Origin: Candidatus Bathyarchaeia archaeon
GTDB lineage: Archaea; Thermoproteota; Bathyarchaeia; Bathyarchaeales; Bathycorpusculaceae
Assembly (NCBI GenBank): GCA_049521795.1
Contig: JBEKOM010000002.1
Location: forward strand, 64,001 to 128,000
DNA: 64,000 nucleotides
Direction: 5' to 3'
Of the stretch, positions 6,384 through 37,735 are shown one piece after another. The notes beneath the pieces were generated by a model. That model worked only from the letters and a program-made list of their open reading frames with translations. It had not been told where the DNA came from and searched no databases. Both the position numbers and the translations under genes were made by a program. Each line of letters opens with the position of its first letter. Position 1 is the first letter of the stretch.

Positions 6384-7001
6384 TTATGAACGTTTGAGCA
6401 TGGCTTCCGCTTTCTTCAGGTCTAGGGCGGTGTTGATGTTGAAGAACGTTCTCAGCCGCGGGTCCAATTGCTCGAGGACCAGGGTCGAGACGTAACGTAC
6501 CCTTGGTAGCTTATCTACCATCGCCTGCAGGTTCAATTTGCCCGAAAGCAGGGCGTTTCTGGCGGCTTCCAACGCAGGTCTCGTACAGTATGCTGCCTGC
6601 AGAGGCTCTATGTAGCAGTTCGGCCATCGAGGGACAGCTGCGTTTCTGTTTATGCACAGTTCTAGCAGAAGATGGAGAATGTCCCTAGAAACGAATGGCG
6701 TGTCGCATGGGAGGAGAAGCGAATACTTCCCTTGTGCGCGTTCAAGGCCTGTTGTTGCACCTGCCAGCGGGCCGTGGACTTCAGCGTCTTCAACGAGAAC
6801 GTTGGCGTCTCCACCCAGGACATTTGAATATCTCTCAGCCTGAACCTTTGAGCTTACAACCACCAGTCTTTCGTCAACGAGGTCTTTCGTCTTCTCCATA
6901 ACGTGTTTTACAAGAGGTCTGTTCAACAATTGAACGAGTCCCTTGTCTTGGCCTAGCCTGCTGGAAACCCCGCCTGCCAATATGATTGCTGATCTTTCCA
7001 A
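6384..7001 (-). CDS. mobA: Molybdenum cofactor guanylyltransferase
   Basis: ILAGGVSSRLGQDKG, GPLAG, PCDTPF, EPLQAAY, FFNINT. Confidence 0.92.
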   Translation of the reverse strand: MERSAIILAGGVSSRLGQDKGLVQLLNRPLVKHVMEKTKDLVDERLVVVSSKVQAERYSNVLGGDANVLVEDAEVHGPLAGATTGLERAQGKYSLLLPCDTPFVSRDILHLLLELCINRNAAVPRWPNCYIEPLQAAYCTRPALEAARNALLSGKLNLQAMVDKLPRVRYVSTLVLEQLDPRLRTFFNINTALDLKKAEAMLKRS

Positions 7002-26741: not shown

Positions 26742-27704
26742 TCACCTTTCATCCTTTTGGGCTTCCTCTATTGTCAGACCCGTGTAGTGAGCAAAAACGT
26801 CGTCAAGGCTCGGTTCGCTCATGCGTATCGAAGTAACGGGCACGTTTTTCCGGGAGAACAAGTCCATTATCCGCGGAACAACTTCTTCCACCTTGTTCAA
26901 GTAGAGACGCAGATTGCTCGGCTTGAGCTGCGTGATGTCTACGACTTCCTTCAGGCTTTTGAGATCTGCTATGATTTCCGCTGAGGCGTCCTTTCCGAGT
27001 TCAACGTCAACTATGTCCCCGCCCAGAATGCTGTCCTTCAACTTTTTAGGCGTGCCGCACACTAGGAGCTTGCCCTTATGGAGTATTCCCACGCGATCTG
27101 AGAGTTGGTCCGCCTCGTAGAGCTCGTTTGTGGCTAGAATTATGGTGCTTCCCTCGTCGCGAAGCTCAAGGAGCATGTTCCATATCTTATGTTTGCCGAT
27201 TATGTCGATCTGAGCTGTCGGCTCGTCGACTATCGCAACCTTGGGTCTTTGGACTAGGACTTTGGCCATCTCGGCCCGCTTGCGCATTCCACCTGAAAGT
27301 GCATGAACATTCTTGTGTCGAGCGTCCCACATGTCAACGGCATCCAACACTTGTTTGACCCGCAGTTTTCGCTCCGACGTTGAGAGGCCGCACACCTTGG
27401 CGTGCCAGTTGACCACGTCCCATGGGGTGCTGACCCACAGCATCTTGGGTTCCTGAAAAGCAACGCCTAGAACGCCTCGGACTTTTTCAGGTTGCTTCCG
27501 GATGTCGAATCCGCCGACTAGGGCAGTGCCATCTGTGGGTTTGATAACCGTTGCGAGCATAAGGATCGTGGTCGTCTTGCCCGCGCCGTTAGGCCCCAGA
27601 AGCCCGAGGATCTCGCCCTCCTCAATGTCCAAGTCCAGATGGTCGACGGCGGCGAGGTCTCCATATTTTTTTGTGAGGTTCTTAATTTGAATTACGGGTG
27701 CCAT
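26742..27704 (-). CDS. ABC exporter ATP-binding protein (DrrA-like)
   Basis: GPNGAGKT, LSGGMRKR, VDEPT, C-terminal PSLDDVF; start at ATG 27704. Confidence 0.93.
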   Translation of the reverse strand: MAPVIQIKNLTKKYGDLAAVDHLDLDIEEGEILGLLGPNGAGKTTTILMLATVIKPTDGTALVGGFDIRKQPEKVRGVLGVAFQEPKMLWVSTPWDVVNWHAKVCGLSTSERKLRVKQVLDAVDMWDARHKNVHALSGGMRKRAEMAKVLVQRPKVAIVDEPTAQIDIIGKHKIWNMLLELRDEGSTIILATNELYEADQLSDRVGILHKGKLLVCGTPKKLKDSILGGDIVDVELGKDASAEIIADLKSLKEVVDITQLKPSNLRLYLNKVEEVVPRIMDLFSRKNVPVTSIRMSEPSLDDVFAHYTGLTIEEAQKDER

Positions 27705-27950
27705 CGCTACACCATTTATGTTAAAGCAGATAGAATGACCACACCGAGAAATAAGATTAACTCCCTGCATCAAATCATAGTCTTATCATCATGGTGTGCT
27801 ACTCGGACTCAGATTCTGTCTCGACTGCACACAAAACTGGTGGCAACGTTTCGTCCGGCTCCAACAACTGTTTCAGATATTCTCTTAGGTCATGATCCTG
27901 AAGGAAGCATTCTTAAGAATACTCTGAACAATACATCTTCGTGGCTTGAC

Positions 27951-29339
27951 GTGAAGAGCACGGGGTTTGACTTCGTTGATAAGAGCAACATGAGCCTCAT
28001 GACCGATTTTTATGAATTGACAATGTGCGCCAGCTATTTTCAAAACAAGAGGAACGAAGCCGCAACTTTCGACCTGTTCATAAGAAAACTACCCCCAAAC
28101 AGGTCATACTTCATCTTCGCCGGGCTGGAACAAACACTGCTCTTCCTTGAAAACATCAGGTTCAGTCAAGACCAAATCAGCTACTTGAGGACAAAAAGAC
28201 TAAGGGAAGATTTCCTGGAATACCTGAAAAGATTCAAATTCACCGGAGACGTATGGTCCGTTCCCGAAGGAACCACAGTTTTTCCTGACGAACCCCTAAT
28301 CAGAGTGACAGCTCCCATAATTGAAGCTCAATTGGTTGAAACATTTATCCTCAACACGGTAAACCTGCAGACGATGATAGCCACTAAAGCGTCAAGAGTT
28401 GTTCTCGCGGCACAAGGCAAGCCCGTGATAGAGTTCGGTTTGCGAAGAACGCAGGGAACGGACGCTGGAATGAAGGCAGCAAGGTGCAGCTACATCGCTG
28501 GAGCCAGCGGAACTTCGAACGTCCTTGCAGGCATGAAGCACGGTATTCCTGTGTTCGGAACAATGGCTCATTCTTACGTAATGTCCTTTGACCATGAGAT
28601 CGATGCCTTCAGAACTTTCGCGAAGGCCTTTCCCGAAAACTCAACCCTTCTCATAGACACCTACGACGACCTGAAGGGTGCAGAAAACGCGGCGATCGTC
28701 GCATTGGAATTGCAGGAAAAAGGGCAGAAATTGAGTGGGGTTCGACTTGACAGCGGCGACCTCGTGAACTTAAGCATCAAGGTCAGACACATTCTAGATG
28801 TCCACGGGCTTCAATACGTCAAAATCTTTGCAAGCGGAGACCTAGACGAGTATGCGATTGAAGACCTCACGAAGAAAGGGGCTAAAATTGATGCGTTCGG
28901 TGTCGGAACAAGAATGAGCACATCCAGTGACAGACCATACGTGGATGTCGTGTACAAGCTATCGGGCAAAGTGGAGCGCGGAGTATTTGTCCCAGCGATG
29001 AAACTGAGCAAAGGCAAGATAACTCTGCCTGGAAAGAAACAGATCTTCAGAAAGCGAAACAGTGAAGGAAAATATCTTAAGGATATTATAGGTTTGGAAA
29101 ACGAGAAAGTCAATGGAGAGCCTCTGCTAGTGAAGGTCATGGAGAAAGGCCGCATAACCTACGATGTCCCAGGGTTAGAAGAAATAAGAAGAGTCACTCT
29201 ACGGAACCTCTTGCAACTCCCAGACAAGTACAAGAAACTGACAGGCGCCGCTTTGTATCCAGTCGAACTGAGCCCTGCGCTGAGAAAGATCACGAATCAG
29301 TTGGAGAAACAACTGAGGCGAGAGGGCTACTCAGCGTGA
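27951..29339 (+). CDS. pncB: Nicotinate phosphoribosyltransferase
   Basis: TDFYELTM, EFGLRR, GTMAHS, IDTYD, RLDSGD, FGVGT; start trimmed to GTG 27951. Confidence 0.95.
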   Translation: MKSTGFDFVDKSNMSLMTDFYELTMCASYFQNKRNEAATFDLFIRKLPPNRSYFIFAGLEQTLLFLENIRFSQDQISYLRTKRLREDFLEYLKRFKFTGDVWSVPEGTTVFPDEPLIRVTAPIIEAQLVETFILNTVNLQTMIATKASRVVLAAQGKPVIEFGLRRTQGTDAGMKAARCSYIAGASGTSNVLAGMKHGIPVFGTMAHSYVMSFDHEIDAFRTFAKAFPENSTLLIDTYDDLKGAENAAIVALELQEKGQKLSGVRLDSGDLVNLSIKVRHILDVHGLQYVKIFASGDLDEYAIEDLTKKGAKIDAFGVGTRMSTSSDRPYVDVVYKLSGKVERGVFVPAMKLSKGKITLPGKKQIFRKRNSEGKYLKDIIGLENEKVNGEPLLVKVMEKGRITYDVPGLEEIRRVTLRNLLQLPDKYKKLTGAALYPVELSPALRKITNQLEKQLRREGYSA

Positions 29340-29678
29340 CGCCAATTTCAGCGCTGTTTTTTCGGCTTTTTCTACGACAGCTTGTTCGTCTGGAGTCTTC
29401 ATCTTATTGTTGTCCGAGGAGATTTTTCCCTCAACTATGACATTGCCCACATCGCTTCCTCCTGCTGAGTAGACGATGCTGGCTTAGAGTCGTCCAAGGG
29501 TTTAAGGTGTGGCTTTGAAGAGTCAACCAAGACTGTACCAGCCGTCAACGATGTAACCATAAAATGCAAAGGATTCAGAAAACTGGCAAAAACTTTGTCT
29601 AGCAGCGTCTGGAATCTAAGCTTGTCCTCCGTTGGACCTTCTCGATTTGTTGATGAAAGATAGTGGAAATGAGGGGGG

Positions 29679-30092
29679 TTAGATCATCGCTTTGGGTTCT
29701 TCAATTCTTCGAAGGAAAGGACGCAAGACTGAGTGTGAGACATTTTCCTCTGGAGGTCCGTTCTTGAACATGCTTGGGGAGCCTATTTTTCTGCATATGA
29801 AGTTGAGGGAATCTTCTGTGAAGTTCAGTAGGCTTTGTCCCTCAGTTGTCAGTTTGTACACTTTTCTAGGTCTTTCGGTTGACATCTCCCAGTCGCTCTT
29901 AACGAACCCTTTCTTTTCCAATGTTCCAAGTAACGGGTAGATTGTGCTTGGCCCGAAGTAGACTCCAAACGTCTTGCGGATCTTGGTGATTATCTGGTAT
30001 CCGTGCATGGGCTGTCCGTTGAGGAACTGGAGTATTATGAGGTCTAGAAGACCTTTCATCAACTTTGTTTGGACTTCCTTTGAGTTGTTCAT
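29679..30092 (-). CDS. PadR-family transcriptional regulator
   Basis: KGLLDLIIL..MHGYQII..PSTIYPLL..RPRKVYKLT..G. Confidence 0.93.
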   Translation of the reverse strand: MNNSKEVQTKLMKGLLDLIILQFLNGQPMHGYQIITKIRKTFGVYFGPSTIYPLLGTLEKKGFVKSDWEMSTERPRKVYKLTTEGQSLLNFTEDSLNFICRKIGSPSMFKNGPPEENVSHSVLRPFLRRIEEPKAMI

Positions 30093-30156
30093 TTCGAACA
30101 CCTTTTCTTTTTCTCTTGTGTGCCTGTCCAACAGTTTGCCTGTTAGACGGGACTAC

Positions 30157-30180
30157 GATATGTCTCTTGCGAGACGTATC
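30157..30180. promoter_or_regulatory. Inverted repeat between divergent PadR genes (candidate operator)
   Basis: GATATGTCTC-ttgc-GAGACGTATC, 9 of 10 bp complementary. Confidence 0.5.
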
Positions 30181-30340
30181 TTGAGTCTCTATATACACTA
30201 GACGCCGATATAAACGTTGATGCGCATCCCAAACATAAACAAGCATAAAGAAGCATACAAGGCGGCATGAACTTTTACGTAAGTCTAATAAACTTGGACA
30301 TGAACCACTACCAAATAGGCCACAGCTAGAACGTGAAAAA

Positions 30341-30667
30341 GTGGCGGATATCTTCAGAAAGGAAATTGTACAACGCATCACCAGAAACCTGCTCGACATC
30401 CAGGTTCTGAGGCTAGTTCAGACCGAACCCATGTGGGGCTACAAGATCAAAAAGCAGGCAGAAGCAAGATTCGGCGTAAGACTCCGACACGGAGCACTCT
30501 ATCCCCTTCTCAACGAACTTGAACAAGAGAGCTTCATAATAGGCCAAAACCAGCGACAAGGCGGAAGAAAAAGAAAAGTGTACCAAATCACTAGGAAGGG
30601 CGAAGAGTACTTAGAAGCGTACAAAAGCGTTCTAAAACAACAGTTAAAAGGAAACGACATGAGATAG
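30341..30667 (+). CDS. PadR-family transcriptional regulator
   Basis: PMWGYKI..HGALYPLLNELE..RKRKVYQITRKG. Confidence 0.92.
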   Translation: MADIFRKEIVQRITRNLLDIQVLRLVQTEPMWGYKIKKQAEARFGVRLRHGALYPLLNELEQESFIIGQNQRQGGRKRKVYQITRKGEEYLEAYKSVLKQQLKGNDMR

Positions 30668-30730
30668 GTTCTGCCTAGATGAGACTTATACTCTCCAGTT
30701 TCAAATATAACAAACAATAAGCATGAGACC

Positions 30731-31729
30731 ATGGGAACGAAGAAAAGTCAGGAAAAATCTGTAATGCTCATTGAGGAACTGAAAGGAAGAAGCAGCAAAG
30801 CACTCGAACTTGCAAAGAAAATAATTCTTGCTGAAAAAACACAGAGTGGAAAAGTGCTTGAAGCGTTAGAATATTACACTTTGCACTGGAACGACTTTAC
30901 TCATCCCGGTTTCTTTTCAATAGCATGCGAAGCCGTTGGCGCAGATCCAAATAGTGTTTTGCCAGTTCAAGTGGCCATAACGATGATGGCCGCGGCTTTT
31001 GACATTCACGACGACCTCATCGATAAATCAAGAACAAAACATGGAGTCCCAACGGTTTTCGGAAAGTTCGGAAAGGACATTGCTCTCCTTCTTGGCGACG
31101 CCTTTCTGATAGAAGGCTTTACGCTCTTGGATGAATCGATCGCCGAATTGCCTCGGGAGAAGATGAAAGAAGCTCTTGAAACGTTTAAGATGGCGCTTTT
31201 TGAGCTTGGCAACGCTCACGCCTTGGAGTTGGACATGAAGCTCAGGGGTGAGGTGCTGCCGAAGGCTTACATGCGAATCCTGGAGATGAAGGCGTCAAGT
31301 ATTGAAGCAGACATGAGGATTGGAGCCTTGGTCGGGGGAGGAACAAAAGAAGAAATTCAGACCCTAGCAGAACTCGGGAGGATTTTGGGCATGCTAGCCA
31401 CACTGAGGGAAGAGTTCGTAGATGTTTTCGAAGTCGAAGAACTGGAGAATCGCGTTCACAGTGAATGTTTACCGATACCCATCCTGTATGCAATGGAAGA
31501 CAAAGAGTCAGCGAGGACGATCGAAAAGTTGCTTGCAAAAAAAGGAATGGCTGGTAAGGACATTGATACACTCGTTGACATTATTTTCAACTCAGAGAGC
31601 GTCATGCGACTCAAGAAAAAGATGCGGGATCTTGTAGCCCGAGGCTTTCATTTGGCGTCGGAAATACGTAATAAGAACTCAGCCATACTACTGCGAAATC
31701 TTGCAGAATGCGCGCTTGAAGATCTTTAG
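30731..31729 (+). CDS. Polyprenyl-synthase-fold protein with degenerate IPP site and pseudo-SARM (ComQ-like candidate)
   Basis: FARM HDDLID intact; GGKRxR replaced by WNDFTHP, RRG by KHG, GQxxD by AHALE, SARM by REEFVD. Confidence 0.85.
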   Translation: MGTKKSQEKSVMLIEELKGRSSKALELAKKIILAEKTQSGKVLEALEYYTLHWNDFTHPGFFSIACEAVGADPNSVLPVQVAITMMAAAFDIHDDLIDKSRTKHGVPTVFGKFGKDIALLLGDAFLIEGFTLLDESIAELPREKMKEALETFKMALFELGNAHALELDMKLRGEVLPKAYMRILEMKASSIEADMRIGALVGGGTKEEIQTLAELGRILGMLATLREEFVDVFEVEELENRVHSECLPIPILYAMEDKESARTIEKLLAKKGMAGKDIDTLVDIIFNSESVMRLKKKMRDLVARGFHLASEIRNKNSAILLRNLAECALEDL

Positions 31730-31732
31730 AGT

Positions 31733-31783
31733 CTAAATCGGGTAAACTCTAACTGGAACGTTCCGTTTCTTTGCCTTCTTCAT
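31733..31783 (-). CDS. Putative 16-aa precursor or pheromone peptide MKKAKKRNVPVRVYPI
   Basis: ATG at 31783, TAG at 31733; GTGAGGGA SD-like site 5 nt upstream; TATA-like CTTAAGTA ~40 nt upstream; convergent with the prenyltransferase gene (3-nt gap). Confidence 0.6.
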   Translation of the reverse strand: MKKAKKRNVPVRVYPI

Positions 31784-31808
31784 CTCAATCCCTCACAAGT
31801 ATATGTGT

Positions 31809-31838
31809 ACGACAAGTGTACTACTTAAGGCTTGTCGT
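31809..31838. promoter_or_regulatory. 8-bp inverted repeat bracketing a TATA-like box between the peptide and MFS genes
   Basis: ACGACAAG-N14-CTTGTCGT; spacer contains TACTTAAG. Confidence 0.55.
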
Positions 31839-31907
31839 TGAACATTAATACAGAATGCTAATGAAGAAATGTTTTATCTCTAGACATCATCATTGCCTAA
31901 CGGGAGC

Positions 31908-33134
31908 ATGAAGATGCACCTTTCCGCACTCTTTGAGAGGAGGATAGCTTGGAGAGACTTTGCTCCATCGTTTGTTGTGGTGTTCAACAGTCTAGTTTGG
32001 TACATATTAGTCTCTGTCATGTTTAACAACGTCGTAAACAGCCTATCCCTTCCTGGTTATGAAACGCTGGGGATATTCTCTCTGCACTACGCAGGCGTTG
32101 CTTGCTCGGCTGTGGTAGGTGCGGCATTCTTCTCGCGGGCACGGAAGACTTACCTTGTGACATGGATCGCTGCCGGAGCACTTACGACAGCATTGTCGGC
32201 AACTATCGCGCACAATAGCACGCCAGTCAACATGGGACTCTCGCTTCTCCTAGGGATCTCGATCGGAGCTGGTCTTCCCTCGTCATTAGCCTATTTTGCT
32301 GATTCGACGTTCGTTGAAAACCGTGGCACCTACGGAGGAATAACTTACGCTGCTGTCGGCTTCACGGTCCTCGCTGTTGGGTTTCCGATAAACATGATCA
32401 ATAATGCTGTTCTAGCGTTTGCCATCCTTGCAATCTGGAGAGCGTCTGGTCTCGGCGCTTTCTTTCTTTCGCATGGTGGAATAGAAGACTCGTCAGAACG
32501 GAAGAATGTCGCGTACGGTTCTATTCTGCGCAGAAGAGATATCGTTTTGTACTTGATTCCGTGGATCATGTTCTCGCTTGTAAACTTTGCAGAGACTCCA
32601 ATATTGAAAGGGGTTCTTGGAGACTTCTACGATTTTGCATCGCTCGTTGAGGTTGCACTGTCCGGGATTTTTGTGCTGTTGGGCGGTTTCGTTGCGGACC
32701 TCACGGGCAGAAAGCGAGTCGTAATTACAGGCTTTATAGTATTGGGCATAGAGTATGCTATGCTTAGTCTCCTTTCTGGAATACCCATTTCTTGGTATGC
32801 GTACATAGTGCTTGACAGCTTTGCGTGGGGCATGTTTGCTTCAGTCTTCTTTATGACGTTATGGGGAGACCTTGCAGAAAACAATCAGAAAGACAAGTAC
32901 TACGCGTTGGGAGGACTTCCTTATCTCTTTGCCGGCCTTCTTCCCATTGTAGTCAAACCCTTCGTTGGCGCAAATCAAGCGGGAACGGCATTCTCTTTGG
33001 CCAGCTTCTTCCTGTTCTTGGCTGTCTTGCCACTGATGTACGCCCCCGAGACATTGCCTGAAAAAAAGATCAGAGAAAGGGAGCTGAAAGAATACCTTGA
33101 GAGAGCGAAGAAGACCAAGGAGAAATACGCTTAA
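31908..33134 (+). CDS. MFS-type 12-TM membrane protein
   Basis: About 12 hydrophobic helices, GFVADLTGRKR motif A, C-terminal APETLPEK and charged helix. Confidence 0.88.
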   Translation: MKMHLSALFERRIAWRDFAPSFVVVFNSLVWYILVSVMFNNVVNSLSLPGYETLGIFSLHYAGVACSAVVGAAFFSRARKTYLVTWIAAGALTTALSATIAHNSTPVNMGLSLLLGISIGAGLPSSLAYFADSTFVENRGTYGGITYAAVGFTVLAVGFPINMINNAVLAFAILAIWRASGLGAFFLSHGGIEDSSERKNVAYGSILRRRDIVLYLIPWIMFSLVNFAETPILKGVLGDFYDFASLVEVALSGIFVLLGGFVADLTGRKRVVITGFIVLGIEYAMLSLLSGIPISWYAYIVLDSFAWGMFASVFFMTLWGDLAENNQKDKYYALGGLPYLFAGLLPIVVKPFVGANQAGTAFSLASFFLFLAVLPLMYAPETLPEKKIRERELKEYLERAKKTKEKYA

Positions 33135-33166
33135 GGGCACGTCTGCTTCTTTTTGATGTGAAATCC

Positions 33167-34291
33167 ATGTTTTTCCATGTAATACTGACGACTGAATGCA
33201 ATTCGAAGTGTAGGTACTGTTACGGTGAGGCGTTGGAGGACATGGATGATGATTCATGGGAGGCTGAAGTTGATTATTCGTTACCACGAGAAATGAGCTA
33301 CGATGTCAGTGTGCTGGATAGGTTTTGCAGGCAAGATGCTGATTGTGTGGTGACGTTCTACGGCGGAGAACCGTTGCTTTGCACCGATCTGATCGGACGA
33401 GTCATGGACAATGTGACGGCCAAGCTTTTCATGATCCAAACGAACGGCTTGCTCCTAGACCGTCTTGAACCAAGTTATGTTAACCGTTTCCACACGATCC
33501 TCGTTTCGATTGACGGTGATGAAAGCCTAACTGATTTCTATAGGGGAGAGGGCACATTCAGGAAAGTTGTTGACAACCTGAAACTGATAAAGCACAATGG
33601 TTTCGAAGGGGAACTCATCGCTAGAATGACGGTTATGGAGAACACTGATATTTACAAACAGGTCAGATGGCTTCTAGAGAACGATGTGTTTCCTTTTTCT
33701 TCAATTCACTGGCAGCTGAACGCTGGATTCTGGAAGAACGATTATGCACGGAGGCATTTTAAGAAGTGGAGCGAAGAAAGCTACAACCCGGGCATACGAA
33801 AACTCGCCGAGTTCTGGGTTAATCATATGGAAGAGAAAGGTGCTGTCCTGCGGCTCTCTCCGTTGCTTGGCATTGCTCATTCCATTCTTTCAGGAGAAGA
33901 AGAAAGCCTCCTGCGCTGTGGAGGAGGATGGATAAACTATGCGATTCAGACTGATGGACACATCGTTCCATGTCCAACGATGTGGGGAATGAAGGATTAT
34001 TACCTGGGGCACATCAGCACTGCTGATCCTTTGAGACTAAAGAAAGTGTTTGTGGGCGAGCCGTGCACGAGGTGCAGTATTTTCAGGTCGTGTGGCGGCC
34101 GATGTTTGTATGCAAATGTAATGAAACGTTGGGGTTCTGAAGAGTACAGTCAGGTGTGCAAGACTGTGAAGAACTTGATCGGGGCCGTTTCGGACCAGTT
34201 GCCGAGGATACAGGAGCTTATTCATCATGGAAAAGTCAACTTGACAGATTTTGAATATACGAGGTACAATGGGTGCGAAATCATACCGTAG
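33167..34291 (+). CDS. Radical SAM/SPASM enzyme resembling the AF0577 (TIGR04084) putative peptide-modifying family
   Basis: CNSKCRYC, FYGGEPLL, QTNG, SIDG, SPASM Cys pattern CGGG..PCP..CTRC..CGGRC..C, terminal NGCEIIP. Confidence 0.85.
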   Translation: MFFHVILTTECNSKCRYCYGEALEDMDDDSWEAEVDYSLPREMSYDVSVLDRFCRQDADCVVTFYGGEPLLCTDLIGRVMDNVTAKLFMIQTNGLLLDRLEPSYVNRFHTILVSIDGDESLTDFYRGEGTFRKVVDNLKLIKHNGFEGELIARMTVMENTDIYKQVRWLLENDVFPFSSIHWQLNAGFWKNDYARRHFKKWSEESYNPGIRKLAEFWVNHMEEKGAVLRLSPLLGIAHSILSGEEESLLRCGGGWINYAIQTDGHIVPCPTMWGMKDYYLGHISTADPLRLKKVFVGEPCTRCSIFRSCGGRCLYANVMKRWGSEEYSQVCKTVKNLIGAVSDQLPRIQELIHHGKVNLTDFEYTRYNGCEIIP

Positions 34292-34465
34292 TTTCGTAAT
34301 AGTCAATCACGTCAGTTCCGCTTTTTCAGGTAGTCAAATCATCTTTGGCTCTACCGGAGCGCATAATACTCTCGGTACCGGAAAACCTAGTTGAGACCGT
34401 AGCAAGGATTTATCCGCAAATAATATTATAGATCGTACTACAAGAGCTTCTTCAAGGAAAGAGAA

Positions 34466-37400
34466 ATGGGAAAAACATTAACTGCTGAATTCGCTCTGAC
34501 GCTGTTGTTCGCAAGCATGCTGCCCTACGCTGTTTCCCTTCAGTCAGTCCGCTACGGCTTGGTGCAGAACCAGAACCCCCCACCTACGGTATGCTTGCAA
34601 CCGGATAATGTAACTGTCAAGAATGGCACAGTCTTTTCATTCAACGTCGTTATTGAAGATGTGCCGGCAGACCCTGGGATGGCGGGCGTTCAATTCACCC
34701 TCAGTTGGGACCCAACAATACTCAATGCCATCAACGTGACCGAGGTGATGTTCCACAACGTGACACCTCCATCTGAATGGAACAACATCTGGGCATTGAA
34801 AAACGAGGTCAACTACACGGCAGTATCCTACGCCTTCACATGGAGCGATATAAACCAAGCCCAGAGCGGGGGCTATTGTCCAATCTCTGGCAACTACACT
34901 TTGGCAACTGTCACAGTTGAGGCGATGGGAGTAGGCTCGACAACTTTACATTTTTCAAACCTGGTCGTGAGCGACCCAAACGCTCAAGTCTTAATATGCT
35001 CGCAAGATGTCCATCCTTGGCCGAACCCCCCCTTGCTGTCTAGCATCATAGTTGATGGCAACTTCAGTGTCTCAACAAGCTTTGGAACCATTCACATAAA
35101 GGCGGACGGAACCATTGCGCCGTCAACAGCGCCTATTCAGCGGATAGGAAACTATTACAAATTGACCGGAAGCATTTCGACAACGGCAGACGGAATCATA
35201 ATTCAAGAGAGCAACATTACACTCGATGGAAACGGTTATGCGATTCAAGGTGCGCAAGCCCAGAACTCTAGGGGATTGGACCTGTCGGGAATAACATCGG
35301 TGAAAATTCAAAACATGCAGATTGACGATTTCCCGTTTGGTGTGCGGCTTAGTTATTCTTCAGACAACAGTTTTTCAGGAAACGACTTGCAGAACAATGA
35401 TTACGGCATCTGGCTGGAATATTCCTCAGGTAACAGCGTTTCAGGAAATAACCTCACAGCAAACGGCGCCTCCGGCATCCGTCTCGATGTCTCTTCGGAC
35501 AACACAATTTGCGGAAACAGCTTGACGAACAGCGGAATTGCCATTTGGCTCGATCATTCTTCAAACAACAGTGTCTCCGAAAACAACGTCGCAGACAATT
35601 TTGGCGGCATCCTTCTCGCTGATTGCTCAAACAACAGCATTTCCAGGAACACCATGACAGCAAACAACGGATGGGGCGTTTCGCTCGAGTATTCCTCAAA
35701 TAACAGCGTTTCGGAAAACAACGTAGCAAACAACAGTGATGGCGTCGGGCTTACGCTTTCATCCAACAACACTATCTACCACAACAACTTCGTAAACAAC
35801 AGTCGCCAAGTTGTCATTGACTATGAATCAATGAATGTTTGGGATGACGGCTATCCTTCTGGCGGTAACTATTGGAGCAACTACGCGGGCATGGACCTGA
35901 ACAGTGGCCCAAACCAAGATCAACCTGGAAAAGATGGCTTAGGCGACACACCATACAGTACAGATTCAAGCAATAAGGACAGGTATCCGCTCATGACATC
36001 ATGGACAACGGGCGATTTCTCCATTTCGGTGTCCCCTTCTTCGCTTTCCATGAATCCAGGTGAATCCGCAAATTGCACTGTCACTCTAGCATCAATTGAA
36101 AATTTCTCCTCAGAAATATCTCTAAGTGCCTCTTCAGATCCAAGCATTGCCAGCGTAACGCTGACATTTGATTCAACTTCGATTAGTCTGGCGGCTGGAG
36201 TCTCAGCAAAATCGACGTTAATGATCAGCACCACATCGACAACACCATTGAACACATTCTCCGTAATCATCGCCGCAATAGGAGGAGGAAAAACAAGGAC
36301 AACCAATTTCACAGTCTCTTCAGAAGTGTCACTTGATGTGCCGTACCAAATCCAAGGGCAGACTAATTGGTCTGGCCCAGCTTCTCTTTCGATGGTTCTC
36401 AACTATTATAACGTTACATTCCATTCATGGGACTACGCGAACAGCACAGGCTTGCTCGCTTTCCGAGCAGATGAAGAAGCATCCGTCGCAGACCTTGTGT
36501 CTTTCATTAGAAAATACTACCCTGCTTTCAACGTAAAGATCGGAAATTACACTCTGAACGAGATACTATCAGCCCAAAACAACGTTGTCCTCGCAGACAT
36601 AGAGTCAAACTTGACAGCAGGGTACCCAGTAATATTGGAACTCGCAGGAATTCCAGGACATTTTGTTGTAGTCATAGGATTCAACAACACCGGGCTTTTA
36701 ATAAATGACCCAAGCGGGGCCTTCTTCACTGATCTACAGTATGGTAAGCCGGGTCGCCCAGTGACTCAAGGGCCATATTACCTTCACGACTTCGTCGAGT
36801 GGACCGACATTCAGATGTTCATCCAACAATACGAACACGATTTGATCCTTGGTGACCATAACACGATGCTGACCATTCAGAGTCCCAACGCAAACCCGTT
36901 GTCAGGAACTCTCGGCTTCAACGAAATACACTGGGGATCTACCAATATAGTGCTGGACAGAGGTATGCAATGGGTGCTTGACGAGCCTGTAGGACCACAA
37001 GACAAGTTTGGATTTTACATGTACGCATACAATTCACATAGCACGGAACAAGACTTCACCGTTTCAGTCAGCATCGTTGGAGACGACAACAAGACATACT
37101 CGACATTTGAGCAGAAACTCAACATCGAGGGTTACAACGGAGACTATTTCTGGAAACCTGAAAATGCTGTGGATCTATCCAGAAGTGAATACTACCGTCT
37201 CTACGTTGAGTTGAAAGACACACAAAACAAAGTGCTAGACTATTTCACGACGCCGAAGATTTACTACTTCAACAACGGTGTTTCCATAATTCTAAAAGAA
37301 AGCGAACATCATCTCTATTTGCACGCGTACGATTCTCAGGATCGCCACGTCGGACTCAGCTATTCAAACAACGAGACCGAGATCGACGTGCCCGACGCTT

Positions 37401-37735
37401 ACTATTTTGACGACTTAAACGGCACGATAACTGTGATTCTGCCCTCGTGGAATTCAAGCTGCCGAGCCGTGGTCGACGCCACTTTCGCTCAAGATGTAAT
37501 GGAAAGCTACAATCTCACAATTACAACTGTAAGCAATGGACAGACCGTAGACCAGAAACTCATTCAAGCAATCATCGAAAATGGAACCCGAAACGAGTAC
37601 AACATCACAATCTCCCAGAGCGGAACACTGATATCAGTGCCCGAGTTCCATTCACTCCTTGTTCTCTCAGTCTTCATGACAGCAACACTTTCAGCAGCGT
37701 TCGTCTTCAAAAAAAAGCGAACCATGAAGACATGA
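34466..37735 (+). CDS. Secreted multidomain surface protein: cohesin, NosD/PbH1 beta-helix, Ig-like, C39-like and PEF-CTERM
   Basis: Signal peptide; GVQFTLSWDP cohesin; GIxLxxSSNN repeats with WDDGYPSGGNYWS; VPYQIQ..SGPAS..GHFVVVIG..NDP; VPEF plus TM plus KKKR. Confidence 0.9.
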   Translation: MGKTLTAEFALTLLFASMLPYAVSLQSVRYGLVQNQNPPPTVCLQPDNVTVKNGTVFSFNVVIEDVPADPGMAGVQFTLSWDPTILNAINVTEVMFHNVTPPSEWNNIWALKNEVNYTAVSYAFTWSDINQAQSGGYCPISGNYTLATVTVEAMGVGSTTLHFSNLVVSDPNAQVLICSQDVHPWPNPPLLSSIIVDGNFSVSTSFGTIHIKADGTIAPSTAPIQRIGNYYKLTGSISTTADGIIIQESNITLDGNGYAIQGAQAQNSRGLDLSGITSVKIQNMQIDDFPFGVRLSYSSDNSFSGNDLQNNDYGIWLEYSSGNSVSGNNLTANGASGIRLDVSSDNTICGNSLTNSGIAIWLDHSSNNSVSENNVADNFGGILLADCSNNSISRNTMTANNGWGVSLEYSSNNSVSENNVANNSDGVGLTLSSNNTIYHNNFVNNSRQVVIDYESMNVWDDGYPSGGNYWSNYAGMDLNSGPNQDQPGKDGLGDTPYSTDSSNKDRYPLMTSWTTGDFSISVSPSSLSMNPGESANCTVTLASIENFSSEISLSASSDPSIASVTLTFDSTSISLAAGVSAKSTLMISTTSTTPLNTFSVIIAAIGGGKTRTTNFTVSSEVSLDVPYQIQGQTNWSGPASLSMVLNYYNVTFHSWDYANSTGLLAFRADEEASVADLVSFIRKYYPAFNVKIGNYTLNEILSAQNNVVLADIESNLTAGYPVILELAGIPGHFVVVIGFNNTGLLINDPSGAFFTDLQYGKPGRPVTQGPYYLHDFVEWTDIQMFIQQYEHDLILGDHNTMLTIQSPNANPLSGTLGFNEIHWGSTNIVLDRGMQWVLDEPVGPQDKFGFYMYAYNSHSTEQDFTVSVSIVGDDNKTYSTFEQKLNIEGYNGDYFWKPENAVDLSRSEYYRLYVELKDTQNKVLDYFTTPKIYYFNNGVSIILKESEHHLYLHAYDSQDRHVGLSYSNNETEIDVPDAYYFDDLNGTITVILPSWNSSCRAVVDATFAQDVMESYNLTITTVSNGQTVDQKLIQAIIENGTRNEYNITISQSGTLISVPEFHSLLVLSVFMTATLSAAFVFKKKRTMKT

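Follow-up and report, generated by a model that had tools for sequence, protein, structure and literature searches.

A candidate peptide-prenylation cassette in Bathyarchaeia, formed by a polyprenyl-synthase paralogue, an antisense micro-ORF and an MFS transporter

The window analysed here is a stretch of 64,000 nucleotides from contig 2 of the genome of a Candidatus Bathyarchaeia archaeon (2.44 Mb, 98.75% complete), and the system in question lies at positions 29679-34291 of it. An earlier note, made from the letters alone, had described six features in this region and had taken them for a ComQX-like locus that makes a prenylated peptide. Profile matches and the list of open reading frames (ORFs) placed all six where the note had put them, namely two PadR genes, a prenyl-synthase-like enzyme gene, a micro-ORF, an MFS gene and a radical SAM/SPASM gene. 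They are given below, together with the putative promoter region of the micro-ORF (aa, amino acids).

29679..30131, minus strand: PadR-family regulator 1, 150 aa (PF03551, E 5.9e-19)
30341..30667, plus strand: PadR-family regulator 2, 108 aa, short single-domain type (PF03551, E 2.5e-18)
30731..31729, plus strand: polyprenyl-synthase paralogue, 332 aa (PF00348, E 1.7e-22)
31783..31733, minus strand: micro-ORF of 16 codons plus stop, with an ATG start, within the 163-nt spacer between the enzyme and MFS genes
31784..31860, minus strand: putative promoter and 5' leader of the micro-ORF, from the consensus of 77 upstream regions
31893..33134, plus strand: MFS transporter, 413 aa (PF07690, E 1.3e-9)
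33158..34291, plus strand: radical SAM/SPASM protein, 377 aa (TIGR04084, 314.2 bits against a cut-off of 225)

The gene of PadR 2 lies on the same strand as the enzyme gene and 63 nt upstream of it. The MFS protein (31893-33134) gave, besides PF07690, weak EntS-like and bacillibactin-exporter-like NCBIfam matches, and its gene has a TTTTAT-type box of its own upstream and is divergent in transcription from the micro-ORF.

A single 16-codon ORF in a 163-nt spacer is uninformative alone, but the comparison across loci raised it far above chance. The ORF call bore out the description of the encoded peptide as having one aromatic residue, a Tyr third from the C-terminus; the peptide is made up of a Met, a Lys/Arg-rich stretch, Pro-Val-Arg and a tail of four residues. 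The micro-ORF converges with the enzyme gene, the stop codons of the two being 3 nt apart in the window and 0-4 nt apart in most loci. For the comparison we took first 20 loci from relatives of the same order and then 80 more from species-representative genomes, the best 80 of 210 relatives; the titles of the related loci were almost all Bathyarchaeia or Bathyarchaeota. A minus-strand ORF of 12-23 codons was present in every enzyme-MFS spacer of the first 20 loci, and these ORFs were alike in running from a Met through a Lys/Arg-rich part and Pro-(Val/Ile)-Arg to a short tail of mainly hydrophobic or aromatic residues. A strict pattern (ATG, at least three Lys/Arg, Pro/Val-aliphatic-Arg, 1-10 residues, stop) matched the minus strand of 71 of 96 unique enzyme-MFS spacers and the plus strand of none (0/96), while two reversed sets gave 0/96 and 1/96, and 100 shuffles a mean of 0.33 (maximum 4) of 96. 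Since the pattern was drawn up after the first set, the contrast with these controls outweighs the exact count. Forms with a GTG or TTG start, or slightly divergent ones, were found in 7 of 12 re-examined spacers. With a looser search, the conserved Lys-rich micro-ORFs that the earlier note had proposed to look for near enzyme homologues were present in at least 88 of the 96 spacers, and 5 more held candidates with fewer basic residues. The proposed aromatic ending stood for 72 of 88 peptides, which carry Trp, Tyr or Phe after the conserved Arg (Trp in 45/88, Tyr in the window), and did not stand for the other 16.

The codons and the upstream regions point to a real gene as well. In 71 unique genes, the conserved Arg was written as CGA (22), AGA (18), AGG (13), CGG (7), CGT (7) and CGC (4), and all four Pro codons were used for the Pro; the use of six Arg and four Pro codons points to selection at the amino-acid level. 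In the window, a GAGGG ribosome-binding-like site lies 6-10 nt ahead of the ATG and a CTTAAG-type TATA-like box about 40 nt upstream, with nested inverted repeats on either side of the box that form a possible operator. Shine-Dalgarno-like (SD-like) sites were found ahead of the micro-ORF in 61 of 77 upstream regions (shuffles, mean 7.7, maximum 18) and TATA-like boxes in 64 of 77 (shuffles, mean 16.7, maximum 25). When the strict pattern was combined with the SD-like and TATA-like sites, exactly one ORF of the 2.44-Mb genome remained, and this was the micro-ORF of the window; no second copy of it or of its promoter was found in the window's own genome besides the locus. We also tried the half-site TGTTSWACA (9 bases, 1 mismatch) as an operator marker and rejected it, since its 101 matches in the window, where 57 are expected, make it too frequent to mark out the locus, and we make no regulon claim. 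On the basis of these sequence comparisons, we conclude that the micro-ORF at 31733-31783 is a real gene, too small for gene callers.

The enzyme, the micro-ORF and the MFS gene vary together. The MFS gene followed the enzyme gene in 78 of 80 loci, the remaining 2 stopping at a contig edge, and the order enzyme-then-MFS was also found beside enzyme paralogues of 26-35% identity. Compared with G002, a genome of the same genus, DNA identity was 90-97% through the NAPRTase gene and both PadR genes up to about 30600 (93-97% over 29700-30300), 45-70% over 30700-33150, where the enzyme, micro-ORF and MFS genes lie, and 85-93% from about 33200 in the radical SAM gene. BLAST pieces had suggested a breakpoint inside the enzyme gene relative to G002; this was discarded, as binned protein identity and a 100-nt sliding comparison put the drop at the 5' end of the gene, and a true junction inside the enzyme gene was found only in G001. 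In this second same-genus genome (locus L023, contig G001:C1), a remnant of a window-type enzyme covers residues 1-131 at 83-84% identity, with one TGA. Short radical SAM-like fragments and an MFS 3' remnant were seen at about 6516-6908 and 9446-11440 of L023, around a complete foreign cassette. We read the G001 remnants, from their sequence, as the visible scar of a cassette replacement.

The same picture emerged from the wider comparison. Over 1485 locus pairs, which are not independent, the Spearman correlation of enzyme identity with MFS identity was 0.68 and that of either with radical SAM identity far lower (0.25). When the radical SAM proteins were at least 80% identical (22 pairs), the enzymes were below 60% in 18 pairs, the median identities being 43% (enzyme) and 39% (MFS protein); when PadR 1 was at least 90% identical (10 pairs), the enzymes were at 37-55% in 9. 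Likewise, PadR 1 was 92-97% identical in same-genus genomes in which the cassette was at just 51-58%, and PadR 2 was 95% identical in G001 and G002. Judged by these identities, three genes diverge and are swapped together between conserved flanks, which is the signature of a specificity cassette. The comQXP pherotypes form the same kind of polymorphic module between conserved flanks. The proposal that enzyme, peptide and MFS protein belong together is thus upheld by their co-diversification and by the constancy of the MFS gene.

The class was sampled evenly, and a member of the enzyme family at E <=1e-40 was present in 130 of the 401 genomes so taken and in 109 of the 220 that are of high quality. 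The cassette enzyme was concentrated in three families (84/103, 17/18 and 7/11 genomes), with up to four copies per genome at separate sites (G171). Some loci (L031, L048, L071, L073 and L105) had tandem enzyme paralogues or two whole cassettes. Two cassette contigs (L044 and L097) came from bins titled as bacteria (Caldiserica and Acidoferrum); their genes were 57-74% identical to those of Bathyarchaeia and the contigs are probably mis-binned. In L066 the matches to the MFS and radical SAM proteins were fragmented, as if the cassette were in decay.

Around weaker or extra copies of the enzyme we examined 20 further loci, most of them with the enzyme gene beside an MFS gene, as a sister set. 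In 13 of the 20, a minus-strand ORF of 62-99 residues ended 0-15 nt from the enzyme stop (105 nt in one), and short ORF forms were found in two others (L141 and L145). The 13 long ORFs aligned together and had a Trp within the last five residues in 12 cases and a Tyr in the other. They had no match in Pfam or NCBIfam (10 of the 13 scanned, E up to 10). The idea that they carry a Nif11-like leader was dropped, as no Nif11 or related model matched in that scan. One subgroup of the sister enzymes has a second motif x-Asp-Phe-x-x, close to the pseudo-motif of ComQ. For the sister locus L139, the predicted complex of the enzyme with its 73-residue ORF scored 0.76 and the highest-scoring of 3 controls 0.02. 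Of the solved complexes, 58 of 80 attain the mark used, as do 2 of 110 mismatched pairs; these counts are only rough because the runs used self-made alignments. The runs had at least 48% of the contacts in common and the partner had a predicted local distance difference test (pLDDT) value of at least 78; in the confident contacts, the N-terminal helices of the ORF product touch the enzyme directly behind the second motif and on the C-terminal helices. According to the available part of the StheQ preprint, no structure of the ComQ family had been reported earlier, so that a pass by memorisation seems unlikely. The model supports the prediction that the long precursor of L139 binds its enzyme.

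These data also bear on the possibility that the micro-ORF serves regulation, either by encoding a translated leader or an arrest peptide or by opening an antisense transcript that reaches the 3' end of the enzyme gene and controls it. The closeness of the two stop codons in most loci would fit such a role, as would the palindromes in the micro-ORF promoter and the lack of an evident T-rich terminator behind the micro-ORF in the window; besides, many tails have an Arg-x-x-Pro spacing, which we take to resemble bacterial arrest motifs. However, there is no co-directional gene behind the micro-ORF to be regulated, the tail is hypervariable and the N-terminal part keeps its composition, as in a precursor and unlike a fixed arrest motif, and the sister cassettes have ORFs of 62-99 residues at the same place. 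We therefore consider a purely regulatory micro-ORF improbable.

The enzyme itself appears to be a re-purposed relative of the archaeal geranylgeranyl diphosphate (GGPP) synthases. The canonical polyprenyl synthase of the same genome, with the usual basic and Asp-rich motifs, is encoded on another contig (beside a long ORF which we presume to be related to type-2 isopentenyl diphosphate (IPP) isomerase), so that the window enzyme is an extra paralogue. Its best sequence matches were IdsA and the Pyrococcus GGPP synthase, with Ord1 at E 2.5e-12. The best of its 16 NCBIfam matches, all of them under their cut-offs, was IdsA, with 100.5 bits against a cut-off of 468. The AlphaFold2 model of the enzyme (pLDDT 94.5) has the IPPS (all-alpha synthase) fold, and the best Foldseek matches were GGPP synthases, at a template modelling (TM) score of 0.83, with Ord1 at rank 17 (TM 0.71). 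By sequence and fold, the canonical archaeal GGPP synthase of the IdsA type is therefore the closest family, and we conclude from these matches that the enzyme stems from archaeal GGPP-synthase stock. It differs from that type in its sub-cut-off score, in the replacement of putative IPP-site basic residues and in being a dispensable, hypervariable second paralogue.

Aligned with the GGPP synthase of its own genome, the enzyme has WNDFTHP in place of GGKRWRP, KHG in place of RRG and REEFVD in place of QDDVLD. The replaced Lys/Arg of motif I and the replaced Arg-Arg behind the first Asp-rich motif presumably bind the IPP diphosphate; in that case the change would affect the acceptor site and leave the donor site intact. 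The first Asp-rich motif is DDLID (residues 94-98) and the second is EEFVD (residues 227-231), and ten positions (D91, D94, D95, D98, K103, T108, E166, D231, E237 and R241) are invariant in 91 enzyme sequences, as expected for a constrained enzyme and not for a decayed copy. Across these 91 sequences the second motif reads [Asp/Glu][Asp/Glu]-x-x-Asp, with the last Asp invariant; R226, directly before it, is nearly invariant, and the residue three places ahead of the motif, Thr in the window, varies in the family. According to binned protein identity, the C-terminal part is the most variable one in window-type enzymes. From its invariant positions, the enzyme looks active.

We also weighed the possibility that the enzyme is a non-catalytic or chain-length-modifying partner of the GGPP synthase of the genome, in the manner of the small subunits of heteromeric synthases. 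Such small subunits were among both its sequence and its structure matches, and the residues needed for normal elongation are lost. In contrast, the 91 sequences all keep the complete first Asp-rich motif along with other active-site-like residues, the enzyme is absent from about two thirds of the sampled Bathyarchaeia and present in up to four copies in others, and its hypervariable gene is linked not to the synthase gene but to those of the peptide and the MFS protein. A partner-subunit role is thus very improbable.

A different possibility is that the enzyme acts on a small molecule, like a terpene synthase or Ord1, that the MFS protein exports an isoprenoid and that the micro-ORF is a separate, for example regulatory, element. 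PadR and MFS are a common efflux pairing, and some of the peptides have no aromatic residue. The second motif is acidic, and the Gln tied to Trp recognition is absent. Moreover, Ord1 of Streptomyces (PDB 9V4G-J), an all-alpha indole prenyltransferase with the same fold, takes a free indole compound as its substrate, as far as the available part of its description goes. This explanation, however, leaves without a cause the amino-acid-selected peptide gene, which lies between the enzyme and MFS genes in at least 88 of 96 loci and is swapped along with them, the near-invariant C-terminal Trp of the long sister ORFs and the predicted binding in L139, and we consider it unlikely. As a parallel to the window enzyme, the same source describes Ord1 as using the first Asp-rich motif for the donor and as having a modified second motif; its substrate is a small molecule, the available text mentions no peptide gene beside it, and canonical GGPP synthases are closer to the window enzyme.

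The flanking radical SAM/SPASM gene, which the earlier note had made a part of the system, did not behave as one. It followed the MFS gene in 58 of 80 loci, was absent despite room in 11, and the contig ended in 9; the 11 loci without it still have the micro-ORF. Its product was 63-88% identical across loci, and orthologues (55-88% identical) were found in 30 of 41 relatives, in most of which the TIGR04084 protein is single-copy and slowly evolving. At least five genomes (G027, G029, G033, G034 and G037) have the radical SAM gene without the cassette, their best enzyme match being the canonical synthase, and in G025, G026, G031 and G040 it lies far from the cassette. Conversely, G030, a cassette-bearing genome of 99% completeness, gave no radical SAM match. 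Around the stand-alone copies (L122-L133) no neighbour was common across lineages, only between close relatives. TIGR04084 was absent from the literature searched, and matches to AF0577 were unrelated accession or catalogue strings.

It is nonetheless conceivable that this is a radical SAM system for a ribosomally synthesised and post-translationally modified peptide, in which the TIGR04084 enzyme cross-links or otherwise modifies the micro-peptide and the prenyl-synthase relative is secondary. Besides the position of the gene after the MFS gene in 58 loci, the protein resembles peptide maturases (PapB-type, E 4.7e-31; Nif11-peptide maturase, E 2.3e-23). In addition, the available part of one report describes a radical SAM enzyme that links Trp to Arg, and in the micro-peptides aromatic residues come after a conserved Arg. 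Against this, the radical SAM gene belongs to the conserved flank outside the variable cassette, each of the two is found in genomes that lack the other, and the peptide gene is kept in the 11 loci with room but no radical SAM gene. Furthermore, the radical SAM core begins at residue 8, so that there is no N-terminal recognition domain. We consider this explanation to be of low probability. From its distribution, we take the radical SAM gene to be a conserved neighbour that does something of its own or, at best, contributes optional tailoring.

The PadR pair, to which the earlier note had assigned control of the locus, is also a piece of the conserved flank. Of 80 loci, 41 have a PadR gene upstream of the enzyme and 31 have none despite room; in the other 8 the contig ends. 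Since PadR 1 lies in the conserved left flank, it is likely a regulator outside the variable cassette. An inverted repeat (GTCCAACAG, 5 nt, CTGTTAGAC) at 30125-30147 overlaps the start of the PadR 1 gene and may be a putative autoregulatory site.

Taking these results together, the best explanation, to which we give an even chance of being right, is a functional unit made of the polyprenyl-synthase paralogue, the antisense 16-residue peptide and the MFS protein, in which the enzyme would prenylate the peptide and the MFS protein would move the product. Several lines of comparison, independent of one another, now stand behind this core idea. The enzyme would ionise a prenyl diphosphate and hand the prenyl group to the ribosomal peptide in place of IPP. 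The target would most likely be the short variable tail after the conserved Arg, in particular the aromatic residue where there is one, and the basic N-terminal part with the Pro-(Val/Ile)-Arg junction may form a minimal site for recognition or cleavage. The MFS protein would carry the lipidated product across the membrane, as an exporter or perhaps an importer, and the PadR pair would control the divergent promoters from which the peptide and MFS genes are transcribed. The product could be a strain-specific signal or an antagonistic lipopeptide.

The closest parallels to such a unit are bacterial. ComQ, StheQ, PalQ and the P domain of ChrPC have the same fold and prenylate Trp in peptides, and for the first three the precursor gene is adjacent to the enzyme gene or clustered with it, as described in the available parts of the reports. 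ComQ/ComX of Bacillus and StheQ/StheX of Sphaerobacter resemble the window in having the all-alpha synthase fold, a kept first Asp-rich motif and a short peptide gene beside the enzyme gene, with the key residue a few positions from the C-terminus. ComQ and StheQ do not use IPP, and the window enzyme, as aligned, lacks the putative IPP-site basic residues. The available accounts give the pseudo-second motif of ComQ as Asn-Asp-x-x-x instead of Asp-Asp-x-x-Asp and place a conserved Gln just upstream of the second motif in Trp-prenylating relatives. The window enzyme is archaeal and, its EEFVD being acidic, its second motif is not of the Asn-Asp form of ComQ. The claim that it is degenerate in the same way as ComQ is hence right for the kept first motif (DDLID) and wrong for the second, which has neither the Asn-Asp pseudo-motif nor the Gln. 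In PalQ of Paenibacillus alvei, of the same fold superfamily, both acidic motifs are kept (D89/D93 and D200/D204), and the target in PalX is at the extreme C-terminus, as in the sister cassettes with a terminal Trp; by the available description of PalQ the two are nevertheless set apart, PalQ being bacterial and strictly Trp-specific whereas the window peptide ends in Tyr-Pro-Ile. Unlike the ComQ systems, window-type peptides have Tyr, Phe, Trp or no aromatic residue. The partners also differ from those of comQXPA, being an MFS protein and PadR instead of the two-component system ComP/ComA; no sensor kinase or response regulator was among the proteins scanned across 27639-37735, where the neighbours are PadR, MFS, radical SAM and NAPRTase proteins. 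We know of no dedicated exporter for ComX. The analogy with ComQX, which the system follows in outline, is thus partly supported and stops short of membership of the ComQ family, with its pseudo-SARM, Gln, universal Trp and ComP/ComA.

Several observations weigh against prenylation of the micro-peptide. All characterised enzymes of this kind target Trp, as far as their available descriptions go, and the window peptide has Tyr; 16 of the 88 peptide rows (some of them duplicates or doubtful calls) have no Trp, Tyr or Phe after the Arg, so that an aromatic acceptor is not universal. The window enzyme lacks the conserved upstream Gln and its second motif is acidic as in chain-elongating synthases. 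At 12-23 residues, as compared with 53-69 for the ComQ type, the window-type precursor is far shorter than any known in the class, and its gene is antisense to the enzyme gene, unlike those of the ComQ and StheQ systems. The strict pattern was itself derived from the data, after inspection of the first 20 loci; with the looser search, the spacers of L066, L067 and L068 gave no micro-ORF and those of L098 and of the second copy in L105 were doubtful, and 5 of the 20 sister loci had no precursor candidate. Finally, the predicted complex is that of a paralogous pair with a long precursor and not of the window's own pair.

Some observations concern the surroundings of the locus. The NAPRTase ORF (27639-29339, plus strand), when read from its first start codon, has about 119 extra N-terminal residues ahead of the first Pfam domain, and its real start probably lies further in. 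The ORF at 26742-27773 is ABC-ATPase-like by sequence. On the other side, 34466-37735 (plus strand) encodes a protein of 1089 residues with cohesin-like, NosD/beta-helix and C39-like peptidase domains; its C-terminus, with Pro-Glu-Phe, a hydrophobic stretch and a basic tail, is one we take to be an archaeosortase-type sorting signal. By tblastn, this protein had no match in the first 20 loci; of the 80 that were added later, two (L055 and L072) gave weak matches at 28-31% identity.

In agreement with the earlier note, which knew of no described archaeal system of this type, neither a peptide prenylation system nor ComQ-type chemistry in archaea was found in the literature searched, most subscription journals being outside its scope. 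If the proposed chemistry holds, the product would be the first archaeal ribosomal lipopeptide, together with a candidate dedicated exporter, and the family would offer enzyme-peptide pairs that differ in their acceptor residue, a natural library of use in peptide lipidation. It could also serve to mark strain-level recognition or antagonism in this uncultured group. To our knowledge, little is known about interactions among Bathyarchaeia, which the available part of the literature counts among the most abundant archaea of anoxic sediments and peat. A bolder reading, which we put forward tentatively and with the balance of probability against it, is that of a strain-specific peptide-pheromone or kin-discrimination system with an origin independent of comQXP, in which a minimal ribosomal peptide encoded by a hypervariable cassette would be lipidated by a GGPP-synthase paralogue and then passed on by a co-evolving MFS protein, with PadR as the intracellular switch. 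If that were true, it would be the first archaeal ribosomal lipopeptide signal and would have the shortest known precursor of its class.

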